A DNA stretch of 64,000 nt from a virus. The DNA lies in the IMG/VR virus record IMGVR_UViG_3300047476_001386, positions 7,344 to 71,343 of that record; one strand, 5' to 3'. Shown here in pieces: positions 1 to 51,304 of the stretch. The translations under genes and the position numbers were made by a program. The notes under the pieces are model-generated. The model was given only the letters and a program-made list of their open reading frames with translations. It did no database searches and was not told the origin of the DNA. How positions within the stretch are numbered: position 1 is the first letter of the stretch; each line of letters starts with the position of its first letter.

Positions 1-168
1 ATGTGGGAACTATTGGGGGAATTGCTATGTCAACCCTTCTAGAGCATAAAGGTTGGTGGTCTTTTCTTAGGGTTGTATTTGGAGCGATACTTATTCGCTA
101 TAAGCACCCCGGTCTTGTCAATTTGAAAAACTAACGCTTGAATTTTCTTAGTATAAAGGAGAAATGAA

Positions 169-462
169 ATGGATAAGCTTATGATTTGCCGGGAACTTCT
201 GAGGGATTTTGTCCTTGCGGAAGGCGCGGAAGTTGCATCGGGCGCTTGGGATGATAGCCGCGCAATGGCTCTAGCGCAAGCGGCTTTTGATGCCGGAACG
301 GAAGCGGGGTTTGATGTGGGGTATGATGTGGGGTATGGGAAGTTTACAGAAACTTACATGGCCGGACGTGTGGCCGGATACAGGGAATGCCTTGACGACT
401 ATGAAATTACTGCTGAGGATGAACTTACGGAAGAAGACGCCCACTATTGGGGCGGACAATAG
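169..462 (+). CDS. hypothetical pre-early protein
   Basis: 97 aa ORF with AAGGAG RBS upstream; acidic, with a short GY/GF-D repeat. Confidence 0.7.
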   Translation: MDKLMICRELLRDFVLAEGAEVASGAWDDSRAMALAQAAFDAGTEAGFDVGYDVGYGKFTETYMAGRVAGYRECLDDYEITAEDELTEEDAHYWGGQ

Positions 463-465
463 CCG

Positions 466-573
466 CCGGGGTGTATCAAATTGATACACCCCCTTGCGCC
501 AAAAAATCGCGACACCCCACTAATCATAACACGTGCGGCTATCCCTTGTCAAGTCTATTTTTCTCAAAAAAAG
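466..573. repeat. pre-early intergenic module copy 1 (palindrome + GCGCC/A-tract + leftward sigma70 promoter)
   Basis: GGGGTGTATCAAATTGATACACCCC palindrome, then GCGCCAAAAAA; minus strand TTGACA-N18-TATGAT. Confidence 0.75.
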
Positions 574-628
574 TGCTTGCAACCTAGGAAAAACGTGATA
601 TTCTCTTTTTATGGATTGGAGAGAACAA

Positions 629-1078
629 ATGAAAGTTGCTGTTTTTGATCTTGATGGAACTGTTATTGATAGCAGCCATCGTCACGCAAGCCTTCCTGAC
701 GGGTCTATTGACCTTGCCCATTGGCGTGAAAATTCTACCCCGGAAAAGATTGCACAAGATACCCTTTTGCCGCTTGTGCAAAAGATGCGGGATTATGCGA
801 AGTCCCGTTATGTAGTTATCTGCACGGCGCGAGTTTTGTCAAGGGCTGATTACGCATTTTTCTACAAGAATAATATTCCCTTTGACTTTGTGCTTTCTAG
901 GCCCAAGGGGTGCGATACTCCCGATGGTGAATTGAAGGTTAAGCAACTTAGTGCGCTTATGTCGCGTTTGGGGCTTCCTCTTTCTCGCGTTACTATGTGG
1001 GATGATAACGACAAAGTAATTGCCGCAATGGGAGCGATTGGAGTTAGGTGTATTGATGCAAAGGCGCTTCGCAAATGA
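629..1078 (+). CDS. HAD-superfamily phosphatase (nucleotidase / PNK-phosphatase-like)
   Basis: N-terminal VFDLDGT motif I, CTAR motif II, K and WDD motifs III/IV; GGAGAG RBS before ATG 629. Confidence 0.8.
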   Translation: MKVAVFDLDGTVIDSSHRHASLPDGSIDLAHWRENSTPEKIAQDTLLPLVQKMRDYAKSRYVVICTARVLSRADYAFFYKNNIPFDFVLSRPKGCDTPDGELKVKQLSALMSRLGLPLSRVTMWDDNDKVIAAMGAIGVRCIDAKALRK

Positions 1079-1239
1079 CTAATGTAATGTATCTAACCCC
1101 GAAAACTGTAAGGCTTCTTTGCTTTGAAATTGAAAATATGCTAAAGCATTATGACACTACAAATAAGCAAGCGGAAGAATTGCAAGAGTTGCTTTATGCT
1201 TTATCAGAATTTGATGAAGTCCGAATTTTCTTGTCCTAA
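1075..1239 (+). CDS. small hypothetical protein (54 aa, MTNVMYLTPK...)
   Basis: ATGA overlap with the previous stop; open frame up to the next hairpin module. Confidence 0.55.
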   Translation: MTNVMYLTPKTVRLLCFEIENMLKHYDTTNKQAEELQELLYALSEFDEVRIFLS

Positions 1240-1242
1240 TTC

Positions 1243-1326
1243 GTGGTGTCCCAAAATGGGACACCACTTGCGCCAAAAATTTGGCACACCCCACTAATTA
1301 TACCACGCTAGGAAATGCGTGTCAAC
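1243..1326. repeat. pre-early intergenic module copy 2
   Basis: GTGGTGTCCCAAAATGGGACACCAC, then GCGCCAAAAATTTGGC; minus strand TTGACA-N17-TATAAT. Confidence 0.75.
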
Positions 1327-1389
1327 AAAACATTTCGCTTGTTTTTCAGAAAAATTCGTGTATGATGACACTTCAATAAGGGAAACCGA

Positions 1390-2103
1390 ATGAAGAAGTA
1401 TTTTATCATTATCGACACTGAAACGACACAAACTGACAAGATTGCCGATTTTGGCGCGGTTGTTTGTGACAAGCAAGGGGAGATTGTAACAGAATGCGGG
1501 GTTCTTGTCAGGGAGTTTTATCTTGACAAGGAAAATCACCCTCTTTTCCACACTAAAGACGCTGATCCGCTTTGGGGCAAGCGTAACCTTCCTAAGCGTT
1601 ACGCTGAATATGACGCTATGTTGAGCAACGGAAGCCGAATGCTTGCAAGCGTTAACGCTGTTAATGCTTGGCTCGCTAAGGTTGCGCTTAAGTATAAGCC
1701 CATTGCTACAGCATATAATCTTAACTTTGACCTTGGAAAATGCCGGAATACTGGTATTGACCTAGACATTTTCTCGCAACAATTTTGCCTCTGGTATGCC
1801 TCTGCTAATCGGTGGATGCACACTAAAGAGTATAGGCAATTTGTGCTTGACAATGTGGCGTTTAACTCGCCAACAAAGTTTAAGAATATGTCTTTTCAGA
1901 CTAAAGCGGAAATCATGGCGCGGTTTGTGTTGAATGATCCCGGCTTGCAAGACGAGCCACATACGGCCCTAGAAGATGCTAAGTATTATGAACTGCCAAT
2001 TCTTAAGAGGCTTGTTCGCACTACTTCGCCAAAGGTTTATATGAACCCGACGCCAGTAACTTGGCGCGACGTTCAAGTAAAAGACTGGTATAGGCCCAAG
2101 TAA
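1390..2103 (+). CDS. DEDDh (DnaQ-like) 3'-5' exonuclease
   Basis: IIDTETT (ExoI), AYNLNFD (ExoII), HTALEDA (ExoIII). Confidence 0.85.
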   Translation: MKKYFIIIDTETTQTDKIADFGAVVCDKQGEIVTECGVLVREFYLDKENHPLFHTKDADPLWGKRNLPKRYAEYDAMLSNGSRMLASVNAVNAWLAKVALKYKPIATAYNLNFDLGKCRNTGIDLDIFSQQFCLWYASANRWMHTKEYRQFVLDNVAFNSPTKFKNMSFQTKAEIMARFVLNDPGLQDEPHTALEDAKYYELPILKRLVRTTSPKVYMNPTPVTWRDVQVKDWYRPK

Positions 2104-2107
2104 AGGA

Positions 2108-2193
2108 AGGGGTGTTGCAAATTTGCAACACCCCCAGCGCCAAAATTTTGGCATAGCACTTCATTATACCACGTATGCGTCTAGCCTGTCAAG
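2108..2193. repeat. pre-early intergenic module copy 3
   Basis: GGGGTGTTGCAAATTTGCAACACCCC, then GCGCCAAAATTTTGGC; minus strand TTGACA-N18-TATAAT. Confidence 0.75.
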
Positions 2194-2349
2194 CAATCTT
2201 TTCTGAAAAAAGTTGTTGCAATCCGCGAAAAAACCTCTATATTCCTAATTGTTGAGGCGGACAACCCGCCGACACAAGGGCCGAAAAAATCACTTGACGC
2301 CCCGTTTAATTCGCGTTAGTATAGGTCATTCAATCGGAAAGGAAAAGAA

Positions 2350-2670
2350 ATGGCTGCCACTGTTAATTTTACCCCGGAACAAGAGGCGGAAATCCGGGCC
2401 TCTGCCCCGCTCAATCTGGAAAAGGCGACTGTCCTTGCCGCCAAGTTTGGCAAGGCGTCTTATAAGTCCATCGTCGCTAAGGCGGTTCGGATGAATGTCC
2501 GGTATGAGCGCAAGGCCCCGACTACTAAGACGGGCGAGCCCGTTATTCGGAAGGAAGAACTTGTTGACTCTATCGGCAAGTATGTTTCCGGTGATCTTGA
2601 CGGGCTTGAAAAGGCCAGCAAGCCCGCGCTGCAAGCTATTCTTGCCGCGCTCACCGTTCGGGCGGAGTAA
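2350..2670 (+). CDS. T5 A2-like pre-early DNA-binding protein
   Basis: HTH-like pattern SYKSIVAKAVRM..Y..K, IRKEELV and LEKASKPALQ, recalled as similar to T5 A2; pre-early position. Confidence 0.65.
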   Translation: MAATVNFTPEQEAEIRASAPLNLEKATVLAAKFGKASYKSIVAKAVRMNVRYERKAPTTKTGEPVIRKEELVDSIGKYVSGDLDGLEKASKPALQAILAALTVRAE

Positions 2671-2675
2671 CAAAA

Positions 2676-2703
2676 AAGCGGCGGGAAGCAATTCCCGCCG
2701 CTT
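2676..2703 (+). terminator. GC-rich hairpin after the A2-like gene
   Basis: AAGCGGCGGGAA-GCAA-TTCCCGCCGCTT. Confidence 0.6.
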
Positions 2704-2725
2704 GACACTCACTAGGAAAGGTGCT

Positions 2726-2944
2726 ATGTTTAAAATCTGGGCAGAATGGGATATCGGGACGGATGATTTTGTATTTTCTTCGCTTGACAAGGCGCGAGAA
2801 TTTGCTAGAATTGCCCTAATGGATAATGACATTATTGGAGATACAGAAGAATTTGGGTTTGACTTTCAAACCCTAGAAGATGTAGAGGATGCGGGCCTGA
2901 TTAGCTTTGACCCCGTAAAGCTTGACCCCGAAATTGTTAACTGA
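2726..2944 (+). CDS. hypothetical protein
   Basis: AGGAAAGG RBS, ATG 2726, acidic 72 aa. Confidence 0.65.
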   Translation: MFKIWAEWDIGTDDFVFSSLDKAREFARIALMDNDIIGDTEEFGFDFQTLEDVEDAGLISFDPVKLDPEIVN

Positions 2945-2954
2945 GGAAAAGAAA

Positions 2955-3155
2955 ATGTTTACTGTAAGAATTGAAACTCCCGCTTATGGTGGTATGTGGG
3001 AATTTCCTTCAAAGGCGGAAGCGCTTGACAAGATTTCCGAATTCTGGCAAGATGCTTTCGATAATGAAAACGCCGAGCATTTTAATGGGGACCCTGATGT
3101 AACGCTTTGGGAACAAATTCCCCTTAAGGTTAACATTCGAGCCTTTGAAGCCTAA
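2955..3155 (+). CDS. hypothetical protein
   Basis: GAGGAAAAG RBS, ATG 2955. Confidence 0.65.
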   Translation: MFTVRIETPAYGGMWEFPSKAEALDKISEFWQDAFDNENAEHFNGDPDVTLWEQIPLKVNIRAFEA

Positions 3156-3160
3156 GCGGC

Positions 3161-3243
3161 GGGTGTGGCATTTTTGCCACACCCCATGCGCCGAAATTTT
3201 GGCAAGTCACTTCAGTATACCACGCCCGCTTGTGTCTGTCAAG
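3161..3243. repeat. pre-early intergenic module copy 4
   Basis: GGGTGTGGCATTTTTGCCACACCC, then GCGCCGAAATTTTGGC; minus strand TTGACA-N17-TATACT. Confidence 0.75.
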
Positions 3244-3253
3244 CGGGCTTTTT

Positions 3254-3510
3254 TGTGACTCATTCGCACCACGCCTAGTTGCGATTGAGAATCATTCGCA
3301 TCACGCCTAGTTGCGAATGATTCTCATTCTCACAGCGCTCCGCGCCAGAGTGCTAAATCAAGTGCAAAATCAACACGTGCGCCAGTGGTTGGTCAAGGCA
3401 TATAGTGTTCCGCGCCAGTGCGCGAGCTACGAGCCCCAAATTATACCACGCGCGGGCAGCCATGTCAAGTCCGAAATTTGGCTCTGCTGGCCGCGCCAGT
3501 GCTAAAATTA
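3254..3510. repeat. repeat-rich non-coding zone, putative T5-like injection-stop region
   Basis: 32-bp-period direct repeat TCATTCGCAYCACGCCTAGTTGCGA, four GCGCCAG copies, and a fifth leftward TTGACA-N17-TATAAT (3440-3469); lies at the end of the pre-early block. Confidence 0.55.
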
Positions 3511-3513
3511 CAC

Positions 3514-3541
3514 TTGACTTTGGCCCCCAATGTGATATAAT
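3514..3541 (+). promoter_or_regulatory. sigma70-type promoter
   Basis: TTGACT...TATAAT upstream of an AGGAGG RBS. Confidence 0.7.
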
Positions 3542-3562
3542 GGTTTCCATAGGAGGCAACTT

Positions 3563-3715
3563 ATGAAACTTTCGCGTGGCAATGTTGAGACGCTCATCGA
3601 GCATCTGGAAGACTTCATTATTCAACTAGAGGAAAGGCTGGACGAATGTGACCTGATTACCACACCTGTTGAGGAGGCATATATTGCTGAAGTGCTGCTG
3701 CGGAGCGGACGTTAA
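3563..3715 (+). CDS. small hypothetical protein (50 aa, MKLSRGNVET...)
   Basis: perfect AGGAGG RBS and a promoter upstream. Confidence 0.7.
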   Translation: MKLSRGNVETLIEHLEDFIIQLEERLDECDLITTPVEEAYIAEVLLRSGR

Positions 3716-3910
3716 ACCGCAACGTGCCATAATTACAGAACTTGCTTAGATTGTGGTTTAGGCACGCAAGCGCAAATTTTGTTCGGCTCCTCTGAGCAAG
3801 AGCAATTACGTACTGATTACTAGGAAAGAGCAGTTAGCACAGCTTGATCCGAAGCGCTGTAACACGTAGCGCGCCGGAAAATTTAATTTTAGAAGGGAGC
3901 ACGGATTATA

Positions 3911-4114
3911 GTGGGAAATACCGAGCCAAGACGGTATGAGGTTATCGAAAAGGAAATAATTCTGTTACAGACTGAACTGCGAAAGATTAGAGAAAAGTGC
4001 GAACACACAAACCTATCTAGAAAAGTATTTAGGCAGTGGGGGACTGGCTGGGAACAATATTCCTGCATTGACTGTGGCCGTGAATGGCCCGCAAGAACGG
4101 AGCTGAAGGATTAA
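3911..4114 (+). CDS. small Zn-ribbon protein
   Basis: CxH...CxxCG pattern. Confidence 0.55.
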   Translation: MGNTEPRRYEVIEKEIILLQTELRKIREKCEHTNLSRKVFRQWGTGWEQYSCIDCGREWPARTELKD

Positions 4115-4115
4115 G

Positions 4116-4265
4116 ATGAGTGCAGTTGTAGAAATTACACATATTGAAGAACCCTGTGAACACCATGAAATAGTTCTAATGTATAAGACTGAGAATGAGG
4201 TAGTATACGGATGCCCGGAATGTTATAAAAAGTTTAGGATACCCAATGAACTATATAGTAGCTAA
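4116..4265 (+). CDS. small Zn-ribbon protein (49 aa)
   Basis: CEH...CPEC pattern; AAGGA RBS. Confidence 0.5.
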   Translation: MSAVVEITHIEEPCEHHEIVLMYKTENEVVYGCPECYKKFRIPNELYSS

Positions 4266-4396
4266 ATGCTGGAACTACCATGACGATAGTGTGGTTGTAC
4301 AAGAAGTACTGCCAGAAGTGTATAATTCCGTAGATGAAGCTAAGTATGAGTCTCAGTTTCATGGTAAAGAGTGGCAGGTTTTTGAATTGGTAAAGT

Positions 4397-4972
4397 ATGA
4401 ATAAGAACGCTAAGAAGTATACAGAGTGGGCCCTTAAATCCAACCGGGGCGAAGTTGAAGGGGAGGAATCCAACCGGGGTGAAGTTGACACAATTATCCT
4501 TGCTGAATCCAACCAAGTAGAAGAGCCCAAACGGCGATCAGTTGCTATAGATGAAGAATTCGATCGAATTACAGGTAAGAGTATAATTGAAGAAGAGCTC
4601 ATCATTGACTACCGTAAGCCCGATCTAGTCGATTTTGCCTGCAACATCCTAGGAATTCCTACTCCAGAGCTTCAACGAGGTTACTTCTCTCATTATGCTG
4701 AAGCTGAGCCCGGAATCATCCGAGTTAACTGCCCCGCTGATAAGCTAGCAGAAGTTATATTTCATGAATGTGCTCATCAGTGGCAGTATGAGCATGGTCT
4801 AATCACTCCTTTCTATAGAGGCGTCGCATACGAAGGATCCTACTGGTGGGCTCCTTGGGAAATCGAAGCTAGAGGAATAGAAGGAGCAATTTTTCACGAG
4901 TGGAGCAAATGTACACAGAAAAAGAGGTCGAAGCACTTAAAGCGTACCCTAGCAAGACTGTTGATGAGCTAG
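4397..4972 (+). CDS. zinc metallopeptidase-like protein
   Basis: IFHECAHQWQ (HExxH) followed by PWEIEAR. Confidence 0.7.
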   Translation: MNKNAKKYTEWALKSNRGEVEGEESNRGEVDTIILAESNQVEEPKRRSVAIDEEFDRITGKSIIEEELIIDYRKPDLVDFACNILGIPTPELQRGYFSHYAEAEPGIIRVNCPADKLAEVIFHECAHQWQYEHGLITPFYRGVAYEGSYWWAPWEIEARGIEGAIFHEWSKCTQKKRSKHLKRTLARLLMS

Positions 4973-5187
4973 CCCTTCAGCTAGGGAAATCCAACCGGAG
5001 CATCATAGCAAAGCTATCAAAGATGGGTCTCTACAGAAAAGAGAAGCTCAACAAGGTTGGTCAGCCTATAATGCCTAAGCTAGAAATGGTTGCAGAAATT
5101 GAAAATGCCCTAGGAATAAGTTGTCCAACCCTCGTGAAGTGTGGTAAGGACGATTTGAGGCTAATTATGCAAACTTTATGCGAATAA
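4909..5187 (+). CDS. A2/D3-family HTH DNA-binding protein paralogue
   Basis: LALQLGKSNRSIIAKLSKMGLY resembles the 2350 protein. Confidence 0.6.
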   Translation: MYTEKEVEALKAYPSKTVDELALQLGKSNRSIIAKLSKMGLYRKEKLNKVGQPIMPKLEMVAEIENALGISCPTLVKCGKDDLRLIMQTLCE

Positions 5188-5221
5188 AAAAAGCGGTTAC
5201 GAGAGTAACCGCTTATTTTTT
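5187..5221. terminator. bidirectional intrinsic terminator
   Basis: A-run, AAGCGGTTAC-GAGA-GTAACCGCTT, T-run. Confidence 0.8.
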
Positions 5222-5502
5222 GCTTTGAATTTTGGAGTAAAAATTGTATTGGTGAGAGAATTGGAAATAAAAAAACGGATAAAAAGTAAGTAAATTTTCA
5301 AGTGAAAGCGGTGGGGCCCATGTGTTGTTCATTGAAAACACACTTCGAGCCGTAGATCCTTAGTAATTTGTAAAGCGTTAATTTATAGATTTGTAAGGTG
5401 CTTTAATTTGAGGTCAATTGTATACGAATTTAAAAATTCGCTTTAGTCGTGACCGGTTACAACTTGTTATCAAGGGTGAATCAATTTATATGGCTTGTAT
5501 TC

Positions 5503-5631
5503 TTAATTGATGCGAAGCAGTTCAACACTGGGGGATATGCATCTATGTGGTTAAGGGGCTCCCTTAGAGTCGCCCCTAACCCAAATGATGAATAACCCCC
5601 AGTTGAACAACTTCGCTTCTGGTCTGATTAA
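5503..5631 (-). ncRNA. candidate ncRNA: ~130-nt imperfect rod-like hairpin
   Basis: GCGAAG/CTTCGC, GTTCAAC/GTTGAAC, CTGGGGG/CCCCCAG and AGGGGC/GCCCCT nested pairs; minus-strand TTGCAT-N17-TACAAT at ~5680-5708. Confidence 0.45.
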
Positions 5632-5748
5632 TTGTTGAGTAGTCACTTGCCTCAGGCCCTCTCTAACAAATCTGTTATGATTGTATCACAAGTTTCTAGA
5701 AAATGCAAGAAATTTTTTTAACCATTTTTTGTTAGGGCACAAAAGAAT

Positions 5749-5777
5749 AGGCACTAGAGATAACTCTCTAGTGCCTT
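5749..5777 (-). terminator. intrinsic terminator ending the leftward accessory block
   Basis: AGGCACTAGAGA-TAAC-TCTCTAGTGCCT with an A-rich tract on its left. Confidence 0.7.
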
Positions 5778-5919
5778 GTTCCATAGGGCTGCATAGTCTA
5801 GTGGATCGAGATTATCTGGAGTAGTTACCCAGAATTCTCCATTAAATACAACCGCTTCAGTCTGACTAAATGCAATAAGCTGTACAACTGATCCGCTGTA
5901 TAGATTTTTCTTAAAATCC

Positions 5920-6102
5920 TTAATTACGGTCCAGCGTACCAGGTAACTTGGAAAATTGCTTTTGATACTCGGTTCGGTACTTATTTCGTGCCTCCTCCCA
6001 AACGGGCTTTAGGGCCGCCCAAAAGGCTCCCTCACTAGAACGTCCATATGCTAGAAGTTCTACATTGACCATCTCGTCATACGCTTCTAAATAATCTTTC
6101 AT
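5920..6102 (-). CDS. hypothetical protein
   Basis: AAAGGA RBS; packed in a leftward operon. Confidence 0.55.
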   Translation of the reverse strand: MKDYLEAYDEMVNVELLAYGRSSEGAFWAALKPVWEEARNKYRTEYQKQFSKLPGTLDRN

Positions 6103-6245
6103 TAATATCCTTTCTTAGTAAGGGTTTTTCATTCCAACCCATAACCAAATTACGAGTAAGACTAGCCAAAAAAGCTCAGCCATCCTTATAAATTTCTCGC
6201 CATATTACGTAGCAAAAACTAAACATTACCATTAAGACTAAAAAC

Positions 6246-6446
6246 TTAAAAAACAATTTGCAGTACCGCCAAAATAAGCACCTTAGCTAGGGCATATGTA
6301 ATAACTACTAGCGGAGTAACACACCAGAAGTACGTCCAAATTTTAATTAAGATTTTAGGTACCTCAGCCCTTTCAAATACTAGCGCGAACACGAATCCAA
6401 ATATAAAAGAACACACTAGAGTGAAATATGCGTGTAGTAGAGTCAT
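6246..6446 (-). CDS. small membrane protein
   Basis: two hydrophobic segments. Confidence 0.55.
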   Translation of the reverse strand: MTLLHAYFTLVCSFIFGFVFALVFERAEVPKILIKIWTYFWCVTPLVVITYALAKVLILAVLQIVF

Positions 6447-6655
6447 CCCATAACCCCCTTAGTCCAAATAAAATAGAGTGGTGGTCCTAACCAGAAAAGT
6501 ATCCATGCACCTAGTGCAAATCGCCTAGGCTTAGACAGAGACAGGTATTGCCAATAACTTAACGCAGTAGCAGACATTGCTCCAATCATAAACATCCCCA
6601 AGAGAGCAAAAACTTGTTCTATGTCCATCGTCCCACCAACCATATTAGTCCACAA
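6443..6655 (-). CDS. small membrane protein
   Basis: two hydrophobic segments; stop/start overlap. Confidence 0.55.
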   Translation of the reverse strand: MWTNMVGGTMDIEQVFALLGMFMIGAMSATALSYWQYLSLSKPRRFALGAWILFWLGPPLYFIWTKGVMG

Positions 6656-6801
6656 ATAAAGGCCCAGTAGCCTAGAACCTCTAAAATCTCTCCCAGCGGA
6701 GCCGGAGTTGTCGAGGGCCTACTAGACGGTTCCTTAAATGCAGAACTAATTGCATTGAGAATGGGACCTACCAAAACGTCCCCCGCGAAAGTATTAATCA
6801 T
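6619..6801 (-). CDS. small membrane protein
   Basis: C-terminal hydrophobic segment; ATGA overlap. Confidence 0.5.
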   Translation of the reverse strand: MINTFAGDVLVGPILNAISSAFKEPSSRPSTTPAPLGEILEVLGYWAFICGLIWLVGRWT

Positions 6802-7013
6802 TTGTACTTCGATCCCTTTTCTGTAAGAACTACATACGTCTGTCTGGTGCGACCTGTACTTTGGGAGCGCTCATAACGAAGAAAACCCCTTTTGAGGAGG
6901 TTTTTCAAAATCGGTGTCTGATGTACCTGCATCTGCCATTTACAGTTAACAAGAAGTTTACCCTCCCTACTTGCTACCAGTTTCAGGAATTGAAGTTTTT
7001 CTTTGTTAATCAT
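6798..7013 (-). CDS. small winged-helix-like basic protein
   Basis: LKNLLKRGFL...R..YVVLTEKG, a MarR-like wHTH tail. Confidence 0.55.
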   Translation of the reverse strand: MINKEKLQFLKLVASREGKLLVNCKWQMQVHQTPILKNLLKRGFLRYERSQSTGRTRQTYVVLTEKGSKYK

Positions 7014-7275
7014 CCAACGTAAACCTCAAATAATTGGCGAGTCTCTTTAGCTCATCCTTAATAACCATATCAACGGTTACTCCGCCATCTGCCACAGACT
7101 CACTCCAGTCCTCGATACTAGCGTATTCCTCTAATGCATACATAGTTTGCTCTATAGCTTGCTCTAGTTGCTTAGATCGCTTTAAAAGTACCTGAACTCT
7201 TTCATTGATATTATCGAGTCTTGTAAAAATGTTATCCACGTTTAGCGTCCTTCCATGTATTATAGAATACACCAT
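7006..7275 (-). CDS. hypothetical coiled-coil protein
   Basis: ORF packing; heptad pattern. Confidence 0.5.
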   Translation of the reverse strand: MVYSIIHGRTLNVDNIFTRLDNINERVQVLLKRSKQLEQAIEQTMYALEEYASIEDWSESVADGGVTVDMVIKDELKRLANYLRFTLDD

Positions 7276-7420
7276 CTTTAAACCATTTATCTTGTACCAA
7301 ATAGATAAATCCCGGTTGATAGTCTATTCCTGTAATTTGCGAATTGTATTTCTGGACTTTAAAATAGCTGCTATTGAGATAGCTATTGATAGCAAGTTTA
7401 CTAGTACTATAATCATTCAT
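7232..7420 (-). CDS. hypothetical protein
   Basis: ORF packing in the operon. Confidence 0.5.
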   Translation of the reverse strand: MNDYSTSKLAINSYLNSSYFKVQKYNSQITGIDYQPGFIYLVQDKWFKDGVFYNTWKDAKRG

Positions 7421-7793
7421 AATAAACCTGACTCACAAAAGTAAACAAGTCGTTACGCTCATCAAATTCTAAAAAGCAAGGAATCCAAAAGTCATCATCT
7501 AGATACTCAAATCGAACCTCGCTAGGAACTCCATACTCATCAAACTCCCCACAAATTCTATGGTTTTCATCCAGAGTAATTCGGTACTCTTTGGAAACCC
7601 AAGAACCTCCTGTGCGATAGTTATACCAATCAGGTCGAACTTCAACGCGCATAGCAAGCTTAGCAATAGCTTGCTTATATGAATAATCGTCCTCGAAAGG
7701 TATAACGAGTTTACGTATTCTTTCCATCCAACTAGTCATTATATCGTCCTTCATAACTTCGGGGTTGTGGTGGTCGGTGAAAGCGCATTTCAT
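7413..7793 (-). CDS. hypothetical protein (start may be ATG 7739)
   Basis: ORF packing in the operon. Confidence 0.55.
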   Translation of the reverse strand: MKCAFTDHHNPEVMKDDIMTSWMERIRKLVIPFEDDYSYKQAIAKLAMRVEVRPDWYNYRTGGSWVSKEYRITLDENHRICGEFDEYGVPSEVRFEYLDDDFWIPCFLEFDERNDLFTFVSQVYYE

Positions 7794-7914
7794 CAGCGAT
7801 TCGCTTTATGCTGACAGCAATTGAGACAAGAGCGGCGTCTGAAATGCTTGTGGTGATAGTTTTTGCTTGAGGCTCAAACTTACCCTCCAAATTGTGAACA
7901 GTAAGATCGCTCAT
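7732..7914 (-). CDS. hypothetical protein
   Basis: AAGGAGA RBS with stop/start overlap. Confidence 0.55.
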   Translation of the reverse strand: MSDLTVHNLEGKFEPQAKTITTSISDAALVSIAVSIKRIADEMRFHRPPQPRSYEGRYND

Positions 7915-8093
7915 TGGTCAGTCTCCTTAAGTAAGGCCCTTTCAATTGGCTTGATATCGTGTTTTTTAGAGCTGCAAGCCTGAAGCTCTGTCTCCAGAGC
8001 ATCAGCACACTCGCTTAGTAGCATTTTTAATGCAGCAATTCTACGGCTTTTCTCTGGAATGCACTCTATTCTAGTTTTTGCGAGCTCGCTCAT
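7911..8093 (-). CDS. hypothetical protein ending KETDQ
   Basis: ATGA overlaps at both ends. Confidence 0.55.
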   Translation of the reverse strand: MSELAKTRIECIPEKSRRIAALKMLLSECADALETELQACSSKKHDIKPIERALLKETDQ

Positions 8094-8455
8094 CGAGCCC
8101 TCTTGCGATAGGCAACTAGTCGATCGAGGTCAAAGCTACACTCCCAATCGGGATCAGCTGGACGCCAATATTTTACATGTTTCCAATTTATGTCTCCTGC
8201 TCGTCGCCTCTCGGAGCGCTGCTTATATTCATAGTAATGATCTGTAGACCACGTCTCTACAACAAGAAATTCCGGGCAGGGGCAGGGTCCCCCATCGTGT
8301 TTTACGGGAGGTTGATGTTCAATCCAGTCAGTCTGAACCCGAAGGGTTTCCTGCAAGGCAGCGTTCTCCTTCTCCAGTTCTTTGATCCTGCAGGTGTTTC
8401 TCCGAATGATGGCGTCCCGTCGCTCTAGTGCGCGGTCAAAAATATCGTCACTCAC
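8090..8455 (-). CDS. modular hypothetical protein (MSDDIFDR coiled coil + HxGxxCP domain)
   Basis: shares its N-terminus with the 8452 ORF and its domain with the 9218 and 9823 ORFs. Confidence 0.65.
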   Translation of the reverse strand: MSDDIFDRALERRDAIIRRNTCRIKELEKENAALQETLRVQTDWIEHQPPVKHDGGPCPCPEFLVVETWSTDHYYEYKQRSERRRAGDINWKHVKYWRPADPDWECSFDLDRLVAYRKRAR

Positions 8456-8750
8456 TGTTCAGTCTCCTTATCCACGGTCGCCAAAAAGTCCTGCACATCA
8501 GTCATATGGCGTGCTGCCTTTGGCCACTGATCCCGCTCAAAAAGTACCTTCCGAGCAGCAATAATGGTGTTATCAAGAACATTCCAATCACGATCACCTG
8601 GACCCCCTTGAACCCAGTCGTAATCTTCAACTACTGCCAACAGCATTTCTTCTAGGGCCTCAATCCTGAGTTTTTGCTTTTCGATAACGACGTCCCGTCG
8701 CGCTAGATTTACACGGTCAAAAATATCGTCACTCACTGTTCAGTCTCCTT
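8433..8750. repeat. 37-bp exact direct repeat at gene junctions (8433-8469 and 8714-8750)
   Basis: CGGTCAAAAATATCGTCACTCACTGTTCAGTCTCCTT occurs twice. Confidence 0.9.
8452..8736 (-). CDS. modular hypothetical protein (MSDDIFDR...KETEQ)
   Basis: flanked by the 37-bp repeat. Confidence 0.65.
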   Translation of the reverse strand: MSDDIFDRVNLARRDVVIEKQKLRIEALEEMLLAVVEDYDWVQGGPGDRDWNVLDNTIIAARKVLFERDQWPKAARHMTDVQDFLATVDKETEQ

Positions 8751-9050
8751 GTGGGGTAAGACAACAACTTCCTGCCCCGTTGCGTCAGCTAGTATTTTTA
8801 GGACTTTGTAGTGATCTTCACCTGGAATAAACGCGGCTGGAATCAGCCTAATAGCCTTCATGAGGCCCTCCTTCAGCGCCTTGATCTTCGCGGCGGATGC
8901 GGCCTGTCCGGCGCGATAGCCTTTCGTCATTTCCGGGATTCCCCAATCATGGTCAGCGTGGCCATTTTTGATGGCGTCCCAATACACAGGGTTTGTGTAT
9001 TCGCGGGCCCGCTTCCTCGCCCAGATCAGGGCTTCGTCGGGTTCAGTCAT
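8733..9050 (-). CDS. hypothetical protein (GC-rich 5' part) ending KETEQ
   Basis: ORF packing; visibly higher GC at ~8860-9050. Confidence 0.65.
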   Translation of the reverse strand: MTEPDEALIWARKRAREYTNPVYWDAIKNGHADHDWGIPEMTKGYRAGQAASAAKIKALKEGLMKAIRLIPAAFIPGEDHYKVLKILADATGQEVVVLPHKETEQ

Positions 9051-9225
9051 CTAATGTATCCTTTAAATAAATTTTAGGCGGAAACCGATCTCGGTACAGC
9101 CACTTGACGCCTCTAGCTCCTCGCACACCGGCTTCTAGTTGCTTAATGTAGATGTAAACTGGCTCTGGAACATTAAATTGTTTCATTTCCGTTCCTTCAT
9201 AGCAGGAAACAATAAACTCACTCAT
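9043..9225 (-). CDS. hypothetical protein
   Basis: GAGGAGG RBS. Confidence 0.6.
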   Translation of the reverse strand: MSEFIVSCYEGTEMKQFNVPEPVYIYIKQLEAGVRGARGVKWLYRDRFPPKIYLKDTLDD

Positions 9226-9526
9226 CTAGTGCCTCCTCAAGCATTCTGACAAGACGCCGCGCAAGAAACAGCGCGGTATACCCATCTACCTTTGAGCGCG
9301 ACTTTTTGTAGTCTTTAAGAGACGCCCGCAAAATACGAAGACTAAAGACCAAAGGACGACTAGGGGCTACCCAATATTCAGTAATGCGGCAACCTTCATC
9401 AGCGGGTCCCCAATACCAAAAATCTGCTCGCTCAAATCCGGGGTCTACCCAGTTACACCCAAAGCTTACCTTAACCATAGTGTCAGGAGGAACTGGGCAT
9501 TCATCCCCAGTATGCTTAACCCACAT
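9218..9526 (-). CDS. hypothetical protein with HTGDECPV domain
   Basis: paralogous to the 9823 and 8090 ORFs. Confidence 0.6.
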   Translation of the reverse strand: MWVKHTGDECPVPPDTMVKVSFGCNWVDPGFERADFWYWGPADEGCRITEYWVAPSRPLVFSLRILRASLKDYKKSRSKVDGYTALFLARRLVRMLEEALDE

Positions 9527-9833
9527 TGTAATTCTCCGAAAATTCAATTACTTTTTGTAGCATTGGCAGCTCCATAAGCTTCATATGACAGTCTCGCTTA
9601 TGCAACCCCATAGCCTTCGCTAGTTCTTTGTACGCTTTTGATCGGCTCATTTGTCCTGACTTCCATAGCCTATCAAAAGCTACGTGAGCCTTAATTCTAA
9701 CCGCATGAGTCTCCGCACTTACTAGTGGAGCATCCTCACCCCAAGACCATAGGCCGCAACACTCACGTCGCGGCCCGTAATGGGTTATTGTAACTGCTGG
9801 AATTGCCCCACAAGTTGGACAATTACTTGCCAT
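9516..9833 (-). CDS. zinc-finger protein (DUF3268-like)
   Basis: CPTCG...ECCG...R.KAH.AFD.LWKSG..SRS.AY..LA..MG....CH. Confidence 0.7.
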   Translation of the reverse strand: MASNCPTCGAIPAVTITHYGPRRECCGLWSWGEDAPLVSAETHAVRIKAHVAFDRLWKSGQMSRSKAYKELAKAMGLHKRDCHMKLMELPMLQKVIEFSENYNVG

Positions 9834-10236
9834 TAAGTACATATCCGAGTAGAAACTCAGCACGATCACACAAATCCTCGGGCCTTGAAGTTGCCGGAGT
9901 CGCAGCAACCGCCAGCTTCAGGCACTCCAGTCGCAGGGCGACGAGGTCGGGTTCGGGCTTGGTCGGGCCGTGGTGGTCGTCGCCACAATAGGCCAGTGCT
10001 GCTGCTTTCTGCTCGTCGGTAAGCGTTGCAATGAAGCCAGTCATCTCAGGCTCCGGGGGCTTGGCGGGGGTGATGATGCGGTAGTGGGTGATAGACCACT
10101 CCTCACCTTTTGTGGCCCAATCCATAAAACGCGACTTCACTATGGCGACGTCACCATCGCAAAACAACACCTGCACCACCGTCTCCGGGTCTACCGGGCA
10201 GGTGTCGCCGGTGTGTTCGATCATCCAGTCCATCAT
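9823..10236 (-). CDS. modular hypothetical protein with HTGDTCPV domain (GC-rich)
   Basis: AAAGGAGA RBS; GC-rich segment ~9870-10230. Confidence 0.65.
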   Translation of the reverse strand: MMDWMIEHTGDTCPVDPETVVQVLFCDGDVAIVKSRFMDWATKGEEWSITHYRIITPAKPPEPEMTGFIATLTDEQKAAALAYCGDDHHGPTKPEPDLVALRLECLKLAVAATPATSRPEDLCDRAEFLLGYVLNGK

Positions 10237-10544
10237 TGTGTCTCCTTTCCAGCTTTGTATGCAGCAAGTGCATAAACCATAATGCATTCACCGTCTAGTT
10301 TACCCTCTAGAAAGTCCTCAGGCTCCATAACGGACCACCTACGTTTAGCAGATTCTTCGGCAAGAACCTTACGTACCACAAGTAGATCGGGATCAATTGG
10401 CTTCCAGCCTGCCCTAGTAAGACGAATTGCCTCTAAAGCAATCTCAACCGCTGGGTCGCAATAAGGTCGAGATTGATTATACCTTCGGGTCGCTTCCATT
10501 AGAATTTCGTAGTCTTCCGTAGTTGTCATTAAACTTCCATTCAT
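10233..10544 (-). CDS. hypothetical protein ending KETQ
   Basis: ORF packing; DPDLL motif shared with the 9823 ORF. Confidence 0.6.
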   Translation of the reverse strand: MNGSLMTTTEDYEILMEATRRYNQSRPYCDPAVEIALEAIRLTRAGWKPIDPDLLVVRKVLAEESAKRRWSVMEPEDFLEGKLDGECIMVYALAAYKAGKETQ

Positions 10545-10665
10545 TCTGTATTATACCCCAACGTAAGGAGCCTGTCAAATATAATAACAGGCCACAATCC
10601 AAACTATAACTAATATGACTAAAAGGCCGCTTCCCGGAAGAAGCAGCTGAGCCAAAAAGAATGCA

Positions 10666-10977
10666 CTAATAGCGCTTAACGCCAGTACCGTCATAGTACC
10701 ACTTTCTATTTTCAGGGTCCAAGAAATACGTATATGCCCTAGAGAAAAGCCATTCCTTGTCCTTAGGGTCAATTCCTGCAAGAAGTCGCATATCCTTGTG
10801 TGCGCTTTCTCGCATAGATAGAATAGCTCCAAGGCCAGACCAGTGGTCTAGCTTTTCTCCAGCACGAAAATGCTCCACAATGGGAACCTTTCCATACTTA
10901 TACTCTAGATAATCGCCACCAATCTTAATCAGGGCCTCATCAGTCAGTTCACTAAGAATCACGTACAATCTCCTCAA
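10666..10977 (-). CDS. hypothetical protein
   Basis: GAGGAG RBS. Confidence 0.55.
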   Translation of the reverse strand: MRRLYVILSELTDEALIKIGGDYLEYKYGKVPIVEHFRAGEKLDHWSGLGAILSMRESAHKDMRLLAGIDPKDKEWLFSRAYTYFLDPENRKWYYDGTGVKRY

Positions 10978-11644
10978 GTGTGAAGGGTGAATCTACCATA
11001 TAATTTCCGCCAATCAATCTAGCGGGTTCTCCGGGTCTTGCGGGGGCGTATTCTGGATTAACGCCGCAAAGATCAGCAATATGCTTATTACTAGCAACAT
11101 GGAAGCCTAAATCGTATGTGCCTTGAGGCTTTTTAAGTAGTGCCTTACATACATCTACAACATGCACGTAAGTTCGAATGGCGGTTCCATCCGGAGTAGG
11201 ATAGTCGTTTCCATAGATTACAGGATTAGATTCCCGCTTAAAAATAGGAATTAGCCGTCTATTGTGATCTTTTACTTTTTCCGTGCCCCCAGCTACGTTA
11301 AAAAGCCGGAATACAGTATACTTGGAATATTGCTGGACCAACCTTTCGGCCATAGCCTTACTGACTCCGTAAGGATTGATAGGCCCCGCTCCTTCGCCGT
11401 ACACAGCGGCGCTACTAGCAAATACATAGTGATCGGCCTCCACTTTTCCAGGCCAGTATGTATTATTTTGAATATACATTTCTGGGTTCTTAACAGACTC
11501 AGTTACTGAGTGATATGCTGCTAGATCAAAGACTACATCATATGATTTAGTAACTGAGTCCCCTTGATCTACAATGTCAGCCTCAATAAACTCTCTGAGT
11601 ACGGAGCCAATAAAGCCCTTACCTCCTAGAATGAGATACCTCAC
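10952..11644 (-). CDS. NAD-dependent epimerase/dehydratase (GalE-like extended SDR)
   Basis: GGKGFIG Rossmann motif, SSAAVYG, YGVSK catalytic YxxxK, YGNDYPTPDGTAIR. Confidence 0.9.
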   Translation of the reverse strand: MRYLILGGKGFIGSVLREFIEADIVDQGDSVTKSYDVVFDLAAYHSVTESVKNPEMYIQNNTYWPGKVEADHYVFASSAAVYGEGAGPINPYGVSKAMAERLVQQYSKYTVFRLFNVAGGTEKVKDHNRRLIPIFKRESNPVIYGNDYPTPDGTAIRTYVHVVDVCKALLKKPQGTYDLGFHVASNKHIADLCGVNPEYAPARPGEPARLIGGNYMVDSPFTLEEIVRDS

Positions 11645-12067
11645 CTATTGGCTCCGTAAACTAGTGCAATAATGAAAACTGTGTACGCAATTCCTGCAAT
11701 ACCTAGCAAAGGATTAATAACTATTACTCCTGCATAGATACACATGGCGAGAGTAAACGCCATAAACATATTCTTATCCATTGTCTAGTTCCCACTTTAG
11801 CACTTTGTCAATATTCTCTTGTGCAACTCGGTAGACATAACCACTAGGTGCTGCCGAGTTTCTAATATGCACTAAAACTCCCTTAAGCTCTTGAATTAGC
11901 CTAAGTGCTTCCTTCAATTCTGTATCCATAATTCACCGTCATCCAATCTTCTAAACAATTTTGTTCATTTATTAAGGGGCATCCGTCACCGTATTTAGAG
12001 ATCATCCGTTCTTTCCACCAGGGGTAGAATTCTGATAGGATTTCTTCCTCAGTAAATGATCTATTAT

Positions 12068-12436
12068 TTAGGGGTGCCCAGTATCTAACCATTTCTTTAC
12101 CTTTACTGCATCTGTGGGTGTTACCCCAAATCTCCAATCTACAAGGTAGTTGGGTCCAATCTCGTCACTAGAAACTATCAATACGAAAGTATCTACAGTA
12201 TTATTGTCTAAATAATCTACTGGATCAGCAATCGTAACTGGTAATCCAACTGCAGCAGTCAATTCAGCCGCAGTAAATGGAGAGCTTCGAGCCACCAGAG
12301 TAGCCCCCGAATCCTCCGCAATATTTTTCAATACTACACAATTCCATGAAGCTAACATAGAGGGATCCTTAAAGATCTCCTCTACGTCATCTCCGACAAC
12401 TAGTACACCTACTACGTCGAAAAATACTACTTTCAT
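12068..12436 (-). CDS. degenerate HAD-domain protein (Swiss-Army-knife RNA-repair HAD-like)
   Basis: MKVVFFDVVGVL resembles KVIFLDxDGVL; second catalytic Asp absent. Confidence 0.5.
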   Translation of the reverse strand: MKVVFFDVVGVLVVGDDVEEIFKDPSMLASWNCVVLKNIAEDSGATLVARSSPFTAAELTAAVGLPVTIADPVDYLDNNTVDTFVLIVSSDEIGPNYLVDWRFGVTPTDAVKVKKWLDTGHP

Positions 12437-12768
12437 TTTTCCTTATAGAAGTAATGGTTTCCAATTTTAATCTTGAAATCCATACTCTTTGCCCAGTAGG
12501 GTCGCTTTCCCGAGTGGAAATGCGTAGCCCCATATGTAACATCTAAAGTTGGGTTATTCCATACATACCTAGCAACAGATTGAGCAACAATCCATGCCTG
12601 TCCATATGGGGCTTTTCTTGATCCGCATTTCCAGCTAAATTGGCTGCACGTAATAACCTTACAGGGTTTACCCCTATTCAGAATAACATACGCAACAGCC
12701 TTTTGGCCTAATGTAGACTCACCACGAGCCTCATAATATACAGCCTGTGCTAAGCAGTCTAATTGCAC
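12433..12768 (-). CDS. cell-wall hydrolase (SleB / Hydrolase_2)
   Basis: CLAQAVYYEARGE...QKAVAYVILNR...QFSW...GATHFH...IGNHYFY. Confidence 0.9.
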   Translation of the reverse strand: MQLDCLAQAVYYEARGESTLGQKAVAYVILNRGKPCKVITCSQFSWKCGSRKAPYGQAWIVAQSVARYVWNNPTLDVTYGATHFHSGKRPYWAKSMDFKIKIGNHYFYKEK

Positions 12769-12959
12769 TACAGAATTAGCTCTGCCTGCCTCTTGCGCTC
12801 TCGCACAATAGCTGCCTTGAGCTTTCTACGACGCCGTTGACTCGGCTTTTCGTAACGCTCCTTTTCAGCCAATTTCGCGAACATTCCATCCTCTGCTAGC
12901 TTTCGCTTTAGAGTCCGAAGCGCGCGATCCAGCTTATTACCTTTAACTTGTACTTGCAT
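12768..12959 (-). CDS. rpsU: ribosomal protein bS21
   Basis: MQVQVKGNKLDRALRTLKRK...YEKPSQRRRRK..AA..R. Confidence 0.9.
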   Translation of the reverse strand: MQVQVKGNKLDRALRTLKRKLAEDGMFAKLAEKERYEKPSQRRRRKLKAAIVRERKRQAELIL

Positions 12960-13179: not shown

Positions 13180-13187
13180 GCCTCAGC

Positions 13188-51300: not shown

Positions 51301-51304
<4 letters not shown>
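49886..51304 (-). CDS. SGNH/GDSL hydrolase with an inserted glycine-rich virion domain
   Basis: FGTSLT, GKGSQTS and EFSIND blocks, a long Gly-rich segment, then DGLHP at the C-terminus. Confidence 0.75.

Follow-up and report, generated by a model that had tools for sequence, protein, structure and literature searches.

A repeated intergenic cassette, present once in each gap between genes, is best explained as the regulatory skeleton of the pre-early (i.e., first-entering) region of a phage that, judging from its protein sequences, is an uncultured and distant relative of T5 (its DNA polymerase shares 44% identity with the T5-like counterparts). The cassettes were analysed in a window of 64,000 nucleotides, corresponding to positions 7,344 to 71,343 of the IMG/VR record IMGVR_UViG_3300047476_001386 (hereafter the contig). 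Read in the direction of the genes, a cassette runs from a stop codon through a GC-clamped perfect hairpin, a GCGCC element with an A/T palindrome and a sigma70-type promoter pointing backward, and ends, 13 nt past this backward promoter, with a T5-style sense promoter and the ribosome site of the next gene. The hairpin lies 50–60 nt upstream of the sense –35 and outside the sense promoter. The whole family consists of 11 full modules and two hairpin-less boundary promoters (contig 2953–10811, i.e., window –4390 to 3468) and extends 4.4 kb upstream of the window, the first-pass annotation having seen only part of it. The four modules that this annotation had described (palindrome, GCGCC element and minus-strand promoter) were all recovered in place, as was its fifth promoter (3468..3440; Table 1).

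Table 1. Features of the array within the window, in window positions; promoters and terminator are predictions.
Position	Strand	Feature	Details
468..492		Module 1 hairpin	Perfect palindrome, 11 pairs, 3-nt loop; directly 3′ of the stop codon of ORF 169–462
496..511		Module 1 GCGCC element	GCGCC, A-tract and weak second palindrome (GCG...CGC)
523..552	–	Module 1 backward promoter	TTGACA-N18-TATGAT, TG; 11/12 matches
577..604	+	Module 1 sense promoter	TTGCAA-N16-TATTCT, before the dmp-like gene; read from the sequence, weaker match, absent from the scan list
629..1078	+	T5 dmp homologue	Deoxynucleoside-5′-monophosphatase, HAD fold; marks the region as pre-early
1243..1267		Module 2 hairpin	11 pairs; from sequence, covariation and fold
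1270..1285		Module 2 GCGCC element	GCGCC and palindrome GCCAAAAATTTGGC
1297..1325	–	Module 2 backward promoter	TG; 12/12 consensus
1320..1366	+	Conserved core	TGTCAACAAAACATTTCGCTTGTTTTT; two –35 elements back to back, 13 nt apart
1339..1366	+	Module 2 sense promoter	TTGTTT-N16-TATGAT, for gene 1390–2103
1390..2103	+	Exonuclease-like pre-early gene	phrog_20187, E 1.6e-14
2109..2134		Module 3 hairpin	12 pairs; weak T-rich tail on the minus strand
2137..2152		Module 3 GCGCC element	GCGCC and perfect palindrome GCCAAAATTTTGGC
2163..2192	–	Module 3 backward promoter	N18, TG; 12/12
2216..2243	+	Sense promoter	TTGCAA-N16-TATATT, ahead of genes 2350–3155; promoter scan
2294..2322	+	Sense promoter	TTGACG-N17-TAGTAT, ahead of genes 2350–3155; promoter scan
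3161..3184		Module 4 hairpin	10 pairs; after the stop codon of ORF 2955–3155
3188..3203		Module 4 GCGCC element	GCGCC and palindrome GCCGAAATTTTGGC
3214..3242	–	Module 4 backward promoter	TTGACA-N17-TATACT, TG; 11/12
3224..3254	+	Canonical terminator	9-pair stem and TTTTTT; loop holds the –35 of the module 4 backward promoter
3283..3331		Inverted repeat	Two exact GAGAATCATTC copies; T5 injection-stop region repeat family
3342..3499	+	GCGCCAG(T/A)G repeats	Four copies (3342, 3379, 3412, 3493) in gene-free DNA
3440..3468	–	Fifth backward promoter	TG; 12/12; no hairpin, would fire into the GCGCCAG repeats
3514..3541	+	Sense promoter	TTGACT-N16-TATAAT, 11/12; for ORF 3563–3715, first gene past the array

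The backward promoters of the window had been called near-perfect, which is borne out by their 11–12 matches out of 12 and by the TG preceding every –10. Across all 13 backward sites of contig 2953–10811, both hexamers (10–12 of 12 matches) and the TG were kept, while the spacers differed between copies; the –35 is perfect, the –10 extended and the spacing 17–18 nt. A promoter scan yielded 17 promoter-like sites in window 1–4000 (vs. 4.9 ± 2.2 in shuffles) and 39 in contig 2000–12000 (vs. 14.9 ± 3.7), and in the latter interval the sites matching at 11 or more of the 12 positions numbered 12 on the minus strand against four on the plus strand. From their sequence, the minus-strand sites thus appear to behave like real sigma70 promoters under selection. 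At module 4 and at both edges of the array the backward promoter remains where no sense promoter follows, suggesting that it serves what lies behind it rather than the next gene.

The hairpin, in turn, is conserved as a structure and not as a sequence. Its inner NN pairs read AT/AT, CC/GG, TG/CA and GG/CC in modules 1 to 4, exactly as noted in the first-pass annotation, and in an alignment of 17 hairpin copies (ten from this phage and seven from its relative L010) 97.3% of the cells were paired, compared with 39–55% in slid controls. Compensatory changes on both sides were present in seven of the 11 pairs, a score equalled in none of 500 shuffles. In relatives the arms were unrelated in sequence, with 6–21 pairs and loops of 2–25 nt. 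Over 65 unique module hairpins, 766 Watson-Crick, 10 G:T and three A:C pairs were counted. Since G:U in one transcript becomes an A–C mismatch in the other, Watson-Crick stems are to be expected if both transcripts, or the DNA, use the stem, and the near absence of wobble pairs therefore points to a constraint on both strands or on the DNA. The excess of G:T over A:C (10 vs. 3) and the four GAAA loops that the module hairpins show on the sense strand hint at a role in the sense RNA only, but these numbers are too small to weigh. A U-rich minus-strand tail was found in two of the 11 hairpins of this phage and a T-rich plus-strand tail in one of 11 (the module at contig 3263), and terminator-like sites occurred at chance frequency (12 found vs. 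11.6 expected); by these features the module hairpins do not look like ordinary intrinsic terminators for either strand. The GCGCC element follows each palindrome of the window after 2–3 nt, opens the second, A/T-rich palindrome and was invariant in all 17 aligned copies from this phage and L010.

This composite recurs, running against the genes, in related viral contigs. With the exonuclease-like gene as query, 14 related loci were retrieved (27–81% identity), and those at 81%, 51% and 27% identity all carried backward consensus promoters beside GCGCC and a hairpin. In loci holding two or more modules, a pattern scan returned 124 non-identical ones. The array genes all lie on the plus strand, with GGAG-type ribosome sites, and the promoters face the hairpins, as had been stated at the outset; this orientation is kept in three protein-level clades of relatives. 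ORF length in the module loci amounted to 62.7 kb opposite the promoters vs. 14.2 kb on the promoter strand, and among 49 locus-strands (a count that includes overlapping loci) 36 had more ORF opposite the promoter and four more on the promoter strand, nine being too short for an ORF. Module positions in L010 are collinear with those of this phage, but many of the genes lying between modules are unrelated (13 of the 31 SD-preceded ORFs in contig 1–14000 had a blastp match in L010).

The label “pre-early” fits the gene content of the region. The ORF at 629–1078 matched phrog_415 (dmp/HAD phosphatase; E 3.7e-25), T5 dmp (33% identity over 173 aa, E 4e-15) and 822 phage records, several of the 40 matches listed being annotated as dmp. 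Its ATG lies at 629, and a longer ORF begins at 611. The array is flanked by the early genes on one side and by the terminase end of the late operon on the other, a position that matches the gene order of T5. When 15 T5 pre-early proteins were compared by tblastn (E ≤ 0.01) with the 71-kb contig (69% complete) and five relatives’ loci, a search that remote homologues could escape, dmp was the sole match, and homologues of A1 and A2 were not found. Contig-level depth values showed no clear doubling. Unstranded contigs from RNA-library run X10 covered window 2267–3075 and 4575–4725, none of them covering a module.

Sense promoters with a GGAG site were predicted in nine of the 11 aligned modules, and part of the conserved core, AACAAAACATTTCGCTTGTTTTT, is identical in eight of the 11 modules of this phage. 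At the right-hand end of the array, which carries an iss-like 11-mer inverted repeat, the canonical terminator at 3224..3254 probably ends sense transcription of the array. Repeats like GCGCCAG(T/A)G were also seen at its left edge (contig 2890–2940).

We tentatively favor the view that each module is a gene-boundary cassette resembling the promoter-early/stem-loop (PeSL) cassettes of T4-type phages, to which a dead-end backward promoter has been added that insulates each gene. The hairpin would act on transcripts arriving from either direction, and the backward promoter would load host RNA polymerase seconds after DNA entry and drive it ~25–35 nt into the hairpin. The outcome would be a dead-end or short antisense transcript, together with a polymerase that, whether standing or moving, opposes read-through from the upstream gene head-on, the combined parts making a two-way insulator. 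Expression of each small gene would thus depend solely on its own promoter, with the next sense promoter protected from occlusion. As near-identical repeats, the cassettes might also serve as recombination points at which genes are swapped between relatives, as for T4-type PeSL. Against insulation it must be said that a head-on promoter is not an established bacterial design for this purpose, that it would cost the phage polymerase collisions inside its own genes, and that the invariant GCGCC has no role in the model. Moreover, a canonical terminator, often a bidirectional one, lies upstream of the hairpin in several modules of the 51% clade, so that the hairpin would not be needed there to stop sense transcripts.

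That same clade speaks for the proposal of the first-pass annotation, i.e., a family of ~55–70 nt two-hairpin sRNAs. In a somewhat wider form, which we consider unlikely, the backward promoters would make an abundant, discrete, stem-loop-rich small RNA (about 55–95 nt) after DNA entry, with the RNA itself as the product, e.g., as a decoy for a host RNA-binding or defence protein or as an antisense RNA of the oop type directed at the 3′ end of the preceding message. The folding half of the proposal held, since the predicted minus-strand RNAs of 52–57 nt fold into two hairpins (z –3.7 to –6.5). Members of a sub-family share a conserved 5′ leader of the backward transcript, as do this phage and L010. 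Within the 51% clade, the predicted start lies 2–6 nt before the hairpin, and in at least four module types the transcript would reach an A-tract/hairpin/T-tract terminator ~20 nt on (L014 9385, L019 9478, L012 7728, L012 9182), such that a discrete backward RNA of some 70–95 nt could form there. A discrete RNA of 55–70 nt, however, requires an end signal, and with a U-rich tail in two of 11 hairpins it is not supported in this phage. The stems also differ between modules and therefore provide no common trans-acting sequence, the only shared recognition sequence being GGCGC; the scarcity of G:U pairs is atypical of selection on RNA only, and the boundary promoters have no hairpin. A comparison of contig 2500–11500 with Rfam (E ≤ 1) assigned no family, the four weak matches all being far below gathering scores; two of these either overlapped a module or lay directly upstream of one (the last at contig 10491–10599).

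The near-exclusive Watson-Crick pairing would also suit an element that works as DNA. In T5, single-chain interruptions fall on the minus strand at 5′-NPu/pGCGCN (AY543070 annotation), with R/GCGCRGG as the extended consensus quoted in the part of PMC3517423 used here, and the hairpin–GCGCC unit could accordingly be a signal for a T5-type programmed minus-strand nick at G/GCGC beside each hairpin, the backward promoter placing polymerase over or beside the nick. If the orientations match, G/GCGC is read on the strand corresponding to T5’s nicked strand in four of four window modules and in 11 of 11 contig modules (a match in sequence only). The 7.9% nick site of T5 likewise has an A-tract and GCGC abutting a hairpin that follows immediately, adjoining GAGAATCATT repeats, a family present here at window 3283–3331. 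Nevertheless, we regard such nicking as quite unlikely: GCGC is just four bases long, none of the four window modules has R/GCGCRGG (they read GCGCAAG, GCGCAAG, GCGCTGG and GCGCATG), and a hairpin was seen at one of four T5 major nick sites examined. The motif with its A/T tract is, moreover, clustered in one 8-kb array (nine of ten contig copies) and paired with promoters, whereas the major nicks of T5 are genome-wide and its left repeat has no backward-promoter array. Lying in the template strand for sense transcription, the proposed nick would also end each message.

It is very doubtful that occupancy rather than RNA is the purpose, i.e., that the consensus promoters are a high-affinity sink or trap for polymerase on entering DNA, tied to the pause in two-step DNA transfer or covering free DNA. 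The quality of the promoters would suit this, as would the two hairpin-less copies at the array edges and the fact that the array fills the entire putative first-step segment and ends at the iss-like repeats. Still, 13 sites cannot titrate a cell’s polymerase at entry, they are scattered along 8 kb and not concentrated at the stop point, their fixed partnership with GCGCC and a hairpin is left unexplained, and T5 and the two cultured relatives checked do without such arrays.

Lambdoid late promoters have a stem-loop and a conserved leader close behind them, as does each backward promoter here, and all 13 face the minus-strand TerS/TerL genes (contig 74–1823). The array might then be a hairpin-checked bank of late promoters, from which a phage antiterminator would later permit leftward reading that silences the pre-early genes and enters the terminase/structural operon left of the array. 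This is highly improbable, as TerS is provided with a near-consensus promoter of its own, a stretch of ~1.1 kb that carries three conserved ORFs on the plus strand intervenes, most hairpins are not canonical terminators and no antiterminator candidate was identified. Lastly, the earlier idea of operators or decoys (TGT-N11/12-ACA) for a dimeric host or phage DNA-binding protein, supported by outer arms GGTGT/ACACC that are indeed frequent in this phage and by palindromes often symmetric through the centre, was rejected as having next to no probability, since the inner bases of the arms covary instead of staying fixed, relatives have unrelated arms and differ widely in arm and loop length, and one hairpin centre is flipped between the close relatives L013 and L014.

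In the literature searched, no description was found of a purpose for the conserved hairpin/GCGCC/backward-promoter arrangement. The insulating cassette that we favor is compared below with its nearest counterparts. PeSL cassettes, going by the portions of PMC2839356 and PMC4122927 drawn on here, are likewise repeated intergenic composites with a strong sigma70-type early promoter, an AT-rich upstream region and, past the stop codon that closes the upstream gene, a stem-loop built of a G-run and a C-run, with a ribosome site behind it; they too adjoin small genes of unknown function and mark gene replacement between close relatives (here vs. L010). In reporters, efficient termination is described for PeSL stem-loops with poly-G/poly-C arms in the same portion of PMC2839356, whose figure legend shows G–T pairs in the stems, which are almost absent here. 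PeSL belongs to T4-like myoviruses and has one co-directional promoter per cassette, whereas in the T5-like siphovirus pre-early region an invariant GCGCC and an opposite consensus promoter, neither of which appears in those portions of the PeSL description, part the stem-loop from the sense promoter. Given this second, stronger and opposite promoter in every module and the T5-like setting, the cassette would work like PeSL without being a member.

The first-step-transfer region of T5, as far as the AY543070 and bioRxiv 10.1101/866236 material used here describes it, shares with the array a dmp homologue, strong host-type promoters, small genes of unknown function and a gene-free right end with GAGAATCATT repeats. 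The dmp, A1 and A2 genes of T5 are read leftwards from sense promoters (AY543070), and T5 differs further in having A1 and A2 and in its left repeat, as detailed above. The convergent promoters of temperate phages offer another parallel. Both lambda oop and coliphage 186 pR/pL involve promoter interference or short 3′-overlapping antisense RNAs, with a strong promoter downstream of a gene and facing it. Those are single switches with defined terminators, whereas here the device follows nearly every gene, mostly without a canonical terminator.

The array of hairpins and backward (minus-strand) sigma70 promoters described in the first-pass annotation was confirmed and extended. All of its listed elements were located to within 1–2 bases, the covariation described for the inner pairs was found in four of the four palindromes, and the five minus-strand promoters match 11–12 of 12 consensus positions, each with a TG extension. 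The genes are plus-strand, as had been stated, with ribosome sites and family matches. GCGCC lies 2–3 nt past each of the four palindromes, where it opens a second, A/T-rich palindrome, and promoter-like sites within window 1–4000 number 17 versus 4.9 in shuffles (3.5-fold). Upstream of the window, 7 further full modules and one boundary promoter were found, bringing the array to 11 modules (each a hairpin, GCGCC and a backward promoter) and two hairpin-less edge promoters. When the 11 modules are aligned, the hairpin comes first, then GCGCC, the A/T tract, a reverse –10 with CACG and, beyond a variable spacer, the reverse –35. Next is a 21-nt AACAAAACATTTCGCTTGTTTTT, identical in 8 modules, in which the –35 of the T5-style sense promoter lies; after it come an extended –10, GGAG and ATG. 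An exact 25-mer of the conserved core had no match in IMG/VR, searched possibly without the window's own record. In module 4 the backward –35 sits within the loop of a canonical plus-strand terminator that is separate from the hairpin. At both array ends, a stretch of GCGCCAG(T/A)G-type repeats adjoins a hairpin-less backward promoter; these repeats may mark where the first-entering segment, or a terminal repeat, stops.

Positions of the array elements and of the other features discussed (contig, numbering of the full viral record)
Feature	Window	Contig	Strand
Module 1 hairpin	468
Module 2 hairpin	1243
Module 3 hairpin	2109
Module 4 hairpin	3161
Fifth backward promoter (hairpin-less)	3440-3468		minus
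Whole array		2953-10811
GCGCCAG(T/A)G-type repeats, upstream of window		2890-2940
GCGCCAG(T/A)G-type repeats, other array end	3342-3499
Inverted repeat, right array end	3283-3331
dmp homologue	629-1078
Exonuclease-like gene	1390-2103
Sense promoter	2216-2243		plus
First RNA-library block	2267-3075	9610-10418
Second RNA-library block	4575-4725	11918-12068
Family-A DNA polymerase	33750-36020		plus
Tail-fibre-like protein	51301-54108		minus
TerS-like ORF, upstream of window		1326-1823	minus
Near-consensus promoter of TerS-like ORF		1731-1760
Pentapeptide-repeat protein, upstream of window		3356-3706	plus

The viral record comprises 71,343 bases (completeness rating 69%), of which the window covers 7344–71343, and its family-A DNA polymerase is most similar (best 44% identity) to those of T5-like phages (Aeromonas AhSzq-1, Proteus PM135, Klebsiella Sugarland). 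From the left contig end, minus-strand terminase-like genes are followed by small plus-strand genes over 8 kb and a block on the minus strand; then come replication genes on the plus strand (helicase, polymerase, SbcCD-like, ribonucleotide reductase) and tail genes on the minus strand. T5 has the same gene order. One ORF is homologous to dmp, a pre-early enzyme of T5, with 33% identity across 173 residues (E 4e-15); it is matched by 822 phage records, and several among the 40 matches listed are annotated dmp. In view of this homologue and the gene order, the label "pre-early" given to the region is therefore reasonable. Homologues of A1/A2 were not detected, and window 1–4000 had no DNA match among 50,697 phage records. 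Elsewhere in the record, the likely ATG of a TerS-like ORF lies ~7 nt past the –10 of a near-consensus promoter, which suggests a leaderless late message, and a 935-aa tail-fibre-like protein carries collagen triple-helix repeats (Pfam PF01391, E 4.6e-48). A pentapeptide-repeat protein encoded between two modules, and not present in the related locus L010, may be a DNA mimic.

At the backward sites both hexamers and the TG are kept over spacers that vary between copies, which, as far as sequence can tell, bears the mark of selection for backward-directed polymerase binding. The exonuclease-like gene has 14 related IMG/VR loci (protein identity 81%, about 51% and 27%), and in all three identity groups GCGCC and a hairpin adjoin backward promoters of consensus type; no close cultured homologue of this gene was found. 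The T5 left repeat has no such array, and backward arrays were likewise not found in the dmp regions of the cultured relatives Aeromonas Akh-2 and Vibrio D149, chosen by dmp similarity. A pattern scan of loci with at least two modules returned 124 non-identical modules, an upper bound in that two GCGCC before one promoter gave two counts and some hits may be due to chance. From GCGCC to the reverse –10 the gap is 0–4 nt in 86 of these, placing the predicted RNA start inside GGCGC, 2–6 nt before the hairpin, 18–23 nt in 19, like in this phage, and of another length in 19. GCGCC belongs with the hairpin, from which its distance is constant, whereas its distance from the promoter varies. With overlapping loci each counted, ORF length amounts to 62.7 kb opposite the promoters versus 14.2 kb on the promoter strand, and among 49 locus-strands ORF length is greater opposite the promoter in 36 and on the promoter's own strand in 4, with 9 too short.

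Modules of the loci at about 51% identity (L012, L013, L014, L018–L021; e.g., L014 at 5838, 7792, 9378 and 9993) often read GCTGGCGCC, containing the Chi octamer that the accessible text of PMC5959072 reports for Pseudomonas syringae Lz4W. A Chi site was set aside as a side observation, since the modules in this window do not have the octamer, that strain may not be the host, and the orientation is not obviously protective of the first-entering end (as placed by analogy with T5).

The hairpins were aligned across 17 copies (10 from this phage, 7 from L010), in which 97.3% of cells are paired and 7 of 11 pairs are changed on both sides; none of 500 shuffles reaches the observed covariation values, and pairing falls to 39–55% when partners are slid by 1–3 columns. 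A survey of this phage and all fetched loci holding two or more modules (50 locus-strands with 199 module hits) yielded 65 distinct hairpins passing the criteria, with 766 Watson–Crick, 10 G:T and 3 A:C pairs, following 426, 6 and 2, respectively, for 39 hairpins in an earlier, smaller round. That smaller round also contained 31 GCGCC-promoter sites without a stem ending within 8 nt (the criterion used), many of which were repeated among near-identical loci or had an ordinary terminator ahead of them. The pair counts and covariation are such that the stems are under selection for complementarity, with wobble avoided. This avoidance is read as a constraint on both strands, i.e., on both transcripts or on the DNA itself; assigning the hairpin to one strand by wobble asymmetry was abandoned, as the G:T and A:C pairs are too few to decide. 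Between the close relatives L013 (9992) and L014 (9993), the centre of one long module hairpin is reverse-complemented (loop CTTA vs. TAAG), a flipped palindrome centre.

Our leading, still tentative reading is a two-way boundary cassette, in which the stem-loop would act on transcripts from both sides, the dead-end backward promoter would block read-through and shield the next sense promoter, and the whole would also serve as a recombination joint. Ordinary terminators were rejected as the identity of the hairpins, given that the array has no more terminator-like sites than chance would give (12 vs. 11.6 expected).

Discrete small RNAs are a doubtful alternative. The two-hairpin sRNAs proposed in the first-pass annotation held up in their predicted fold, the minus-strand RNAs of the four window modules (52–57 nt) folding into the main hairpin and a smaller A/U one (z –3.7 to –6.5), but not in their end signals, with a T-rich tail on 2 of 11 module hairpins on the minus strand (plus strand, 1 of 11). 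Several modules of the 51%-identity loci have an ordinary, often two-way, terminator between gene and module hairpin, and there a discrete backward RNA of roughly 70–95 nt is plausible. Nothing meaningful was matched in Rfam. Given the folds, the scarce end signals and the terminators of these relatives, short RNAs would be possible, more so in the relatives than in this phage. Of 24 public runs listed, four were compared with the record, all as assembled contigs; the runs containing this DNA carry the label freshwater. Assembled contigs of a freshwater metatranscriptome (unstranded, without end information) match two blocks at depth 2–6 and 99–100% identity, neither touching a module; gaps over modules are uninformative in such contigs, and DNA contigs break at repeats. 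The first block begins ~17 nt downstream of the predicted start from a sense promoter; the match is low-depth and unstranded, and could be DNA carry-over.

That the modules are T5-type nick signals is unlikely. The annotated major nicks of T5 lie on the minus strand at Pu/GCGC, according to the record annotation and the accessible text of PMC3517423, and the modules of this phage all read G/GCGC on the corresponding strand, whereas the longer T5 consensus is found in none of the four window modules. At the T5 7.9% nick, GCGC abuts a hairpin, beside GAGAATCATT-type repeats, and the inverted repeat at the right array end holds two exact inverted GAGAATCATTC copies (the GAGAATCATT 11-mer), the sole ones in 64 kb; the T5 injection-stop region (T5 9590–9706) has four members of this 11-mer family. 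All four annotated T5 major nick sites examined (9748 in L009, the T5 record AY543070; L024 1837, L025 2247, L026 2074) have GTAAT/GTAAC on the nicked strand, ~30 nt to the 5′ side of the nick, which may be a second recognition element beside Pu/GCGC.

Quite unlikely is a new gene-boundary device for first-entering DNA, in which nick, hairpin and polymerase would together end messages and mark cassettes without a canonical terminator. The invariant GGCGC beside the hairpin would then be a programmed T5-type break, placed in the strand that serves as template for the pre-early genes, onto which the consensus backward promoter would at once load host polymerase; were this correct, the T5 nicks, long unexplained, would gain a function. 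A polymerase sink is improbable, a bank for late antitermination highly improbable. Operators are extremely unlikely, and the decoys for a host regulator raised earlier were rejected since the inner arms covary and the geometry is variable.

Promoters are normally kept for expressing something. In this T5-like lineage each genome retains about twelve near-perfect host promoters, facing the wrong way and straight into a hairpin, in DNA acting in the first minutes of infection. One possible outcome is a new form of gene insulation without standard terminators, useful for synthetic circuits; another is a link between polymerase loading and the T5 GCGC nick signal, the function of which has, to our knowledge, been open since the 1960s–70s. 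The cassettes would explain early-gene swapping among these phages, and this bears on how the unknown host-takeover or anti-defence genes between them are read.

Backward promoter arrays in T5-like pre-early DNA, or PeSL-like cassettes outside T4-type phages, were not found described in the open-access literature searched. The nearest described system, as far as the accessible text of PMC2839356 and PMC4122927 goes, is the PeSL cassette of T4-type phages, in which a repeated early promoter and a G/C-armed stem-loop border small unknown genes. Reporter assays show termination at PeSLs, and genes are shuffled when PeSLs recombine with each other. That description has no counterpart to the invariant GCGCC or the stronger backward promoter of this phage, while the mosaic pattern is alike: the modules are collinear with those of L010, and many of the intervening genes are unrelated.
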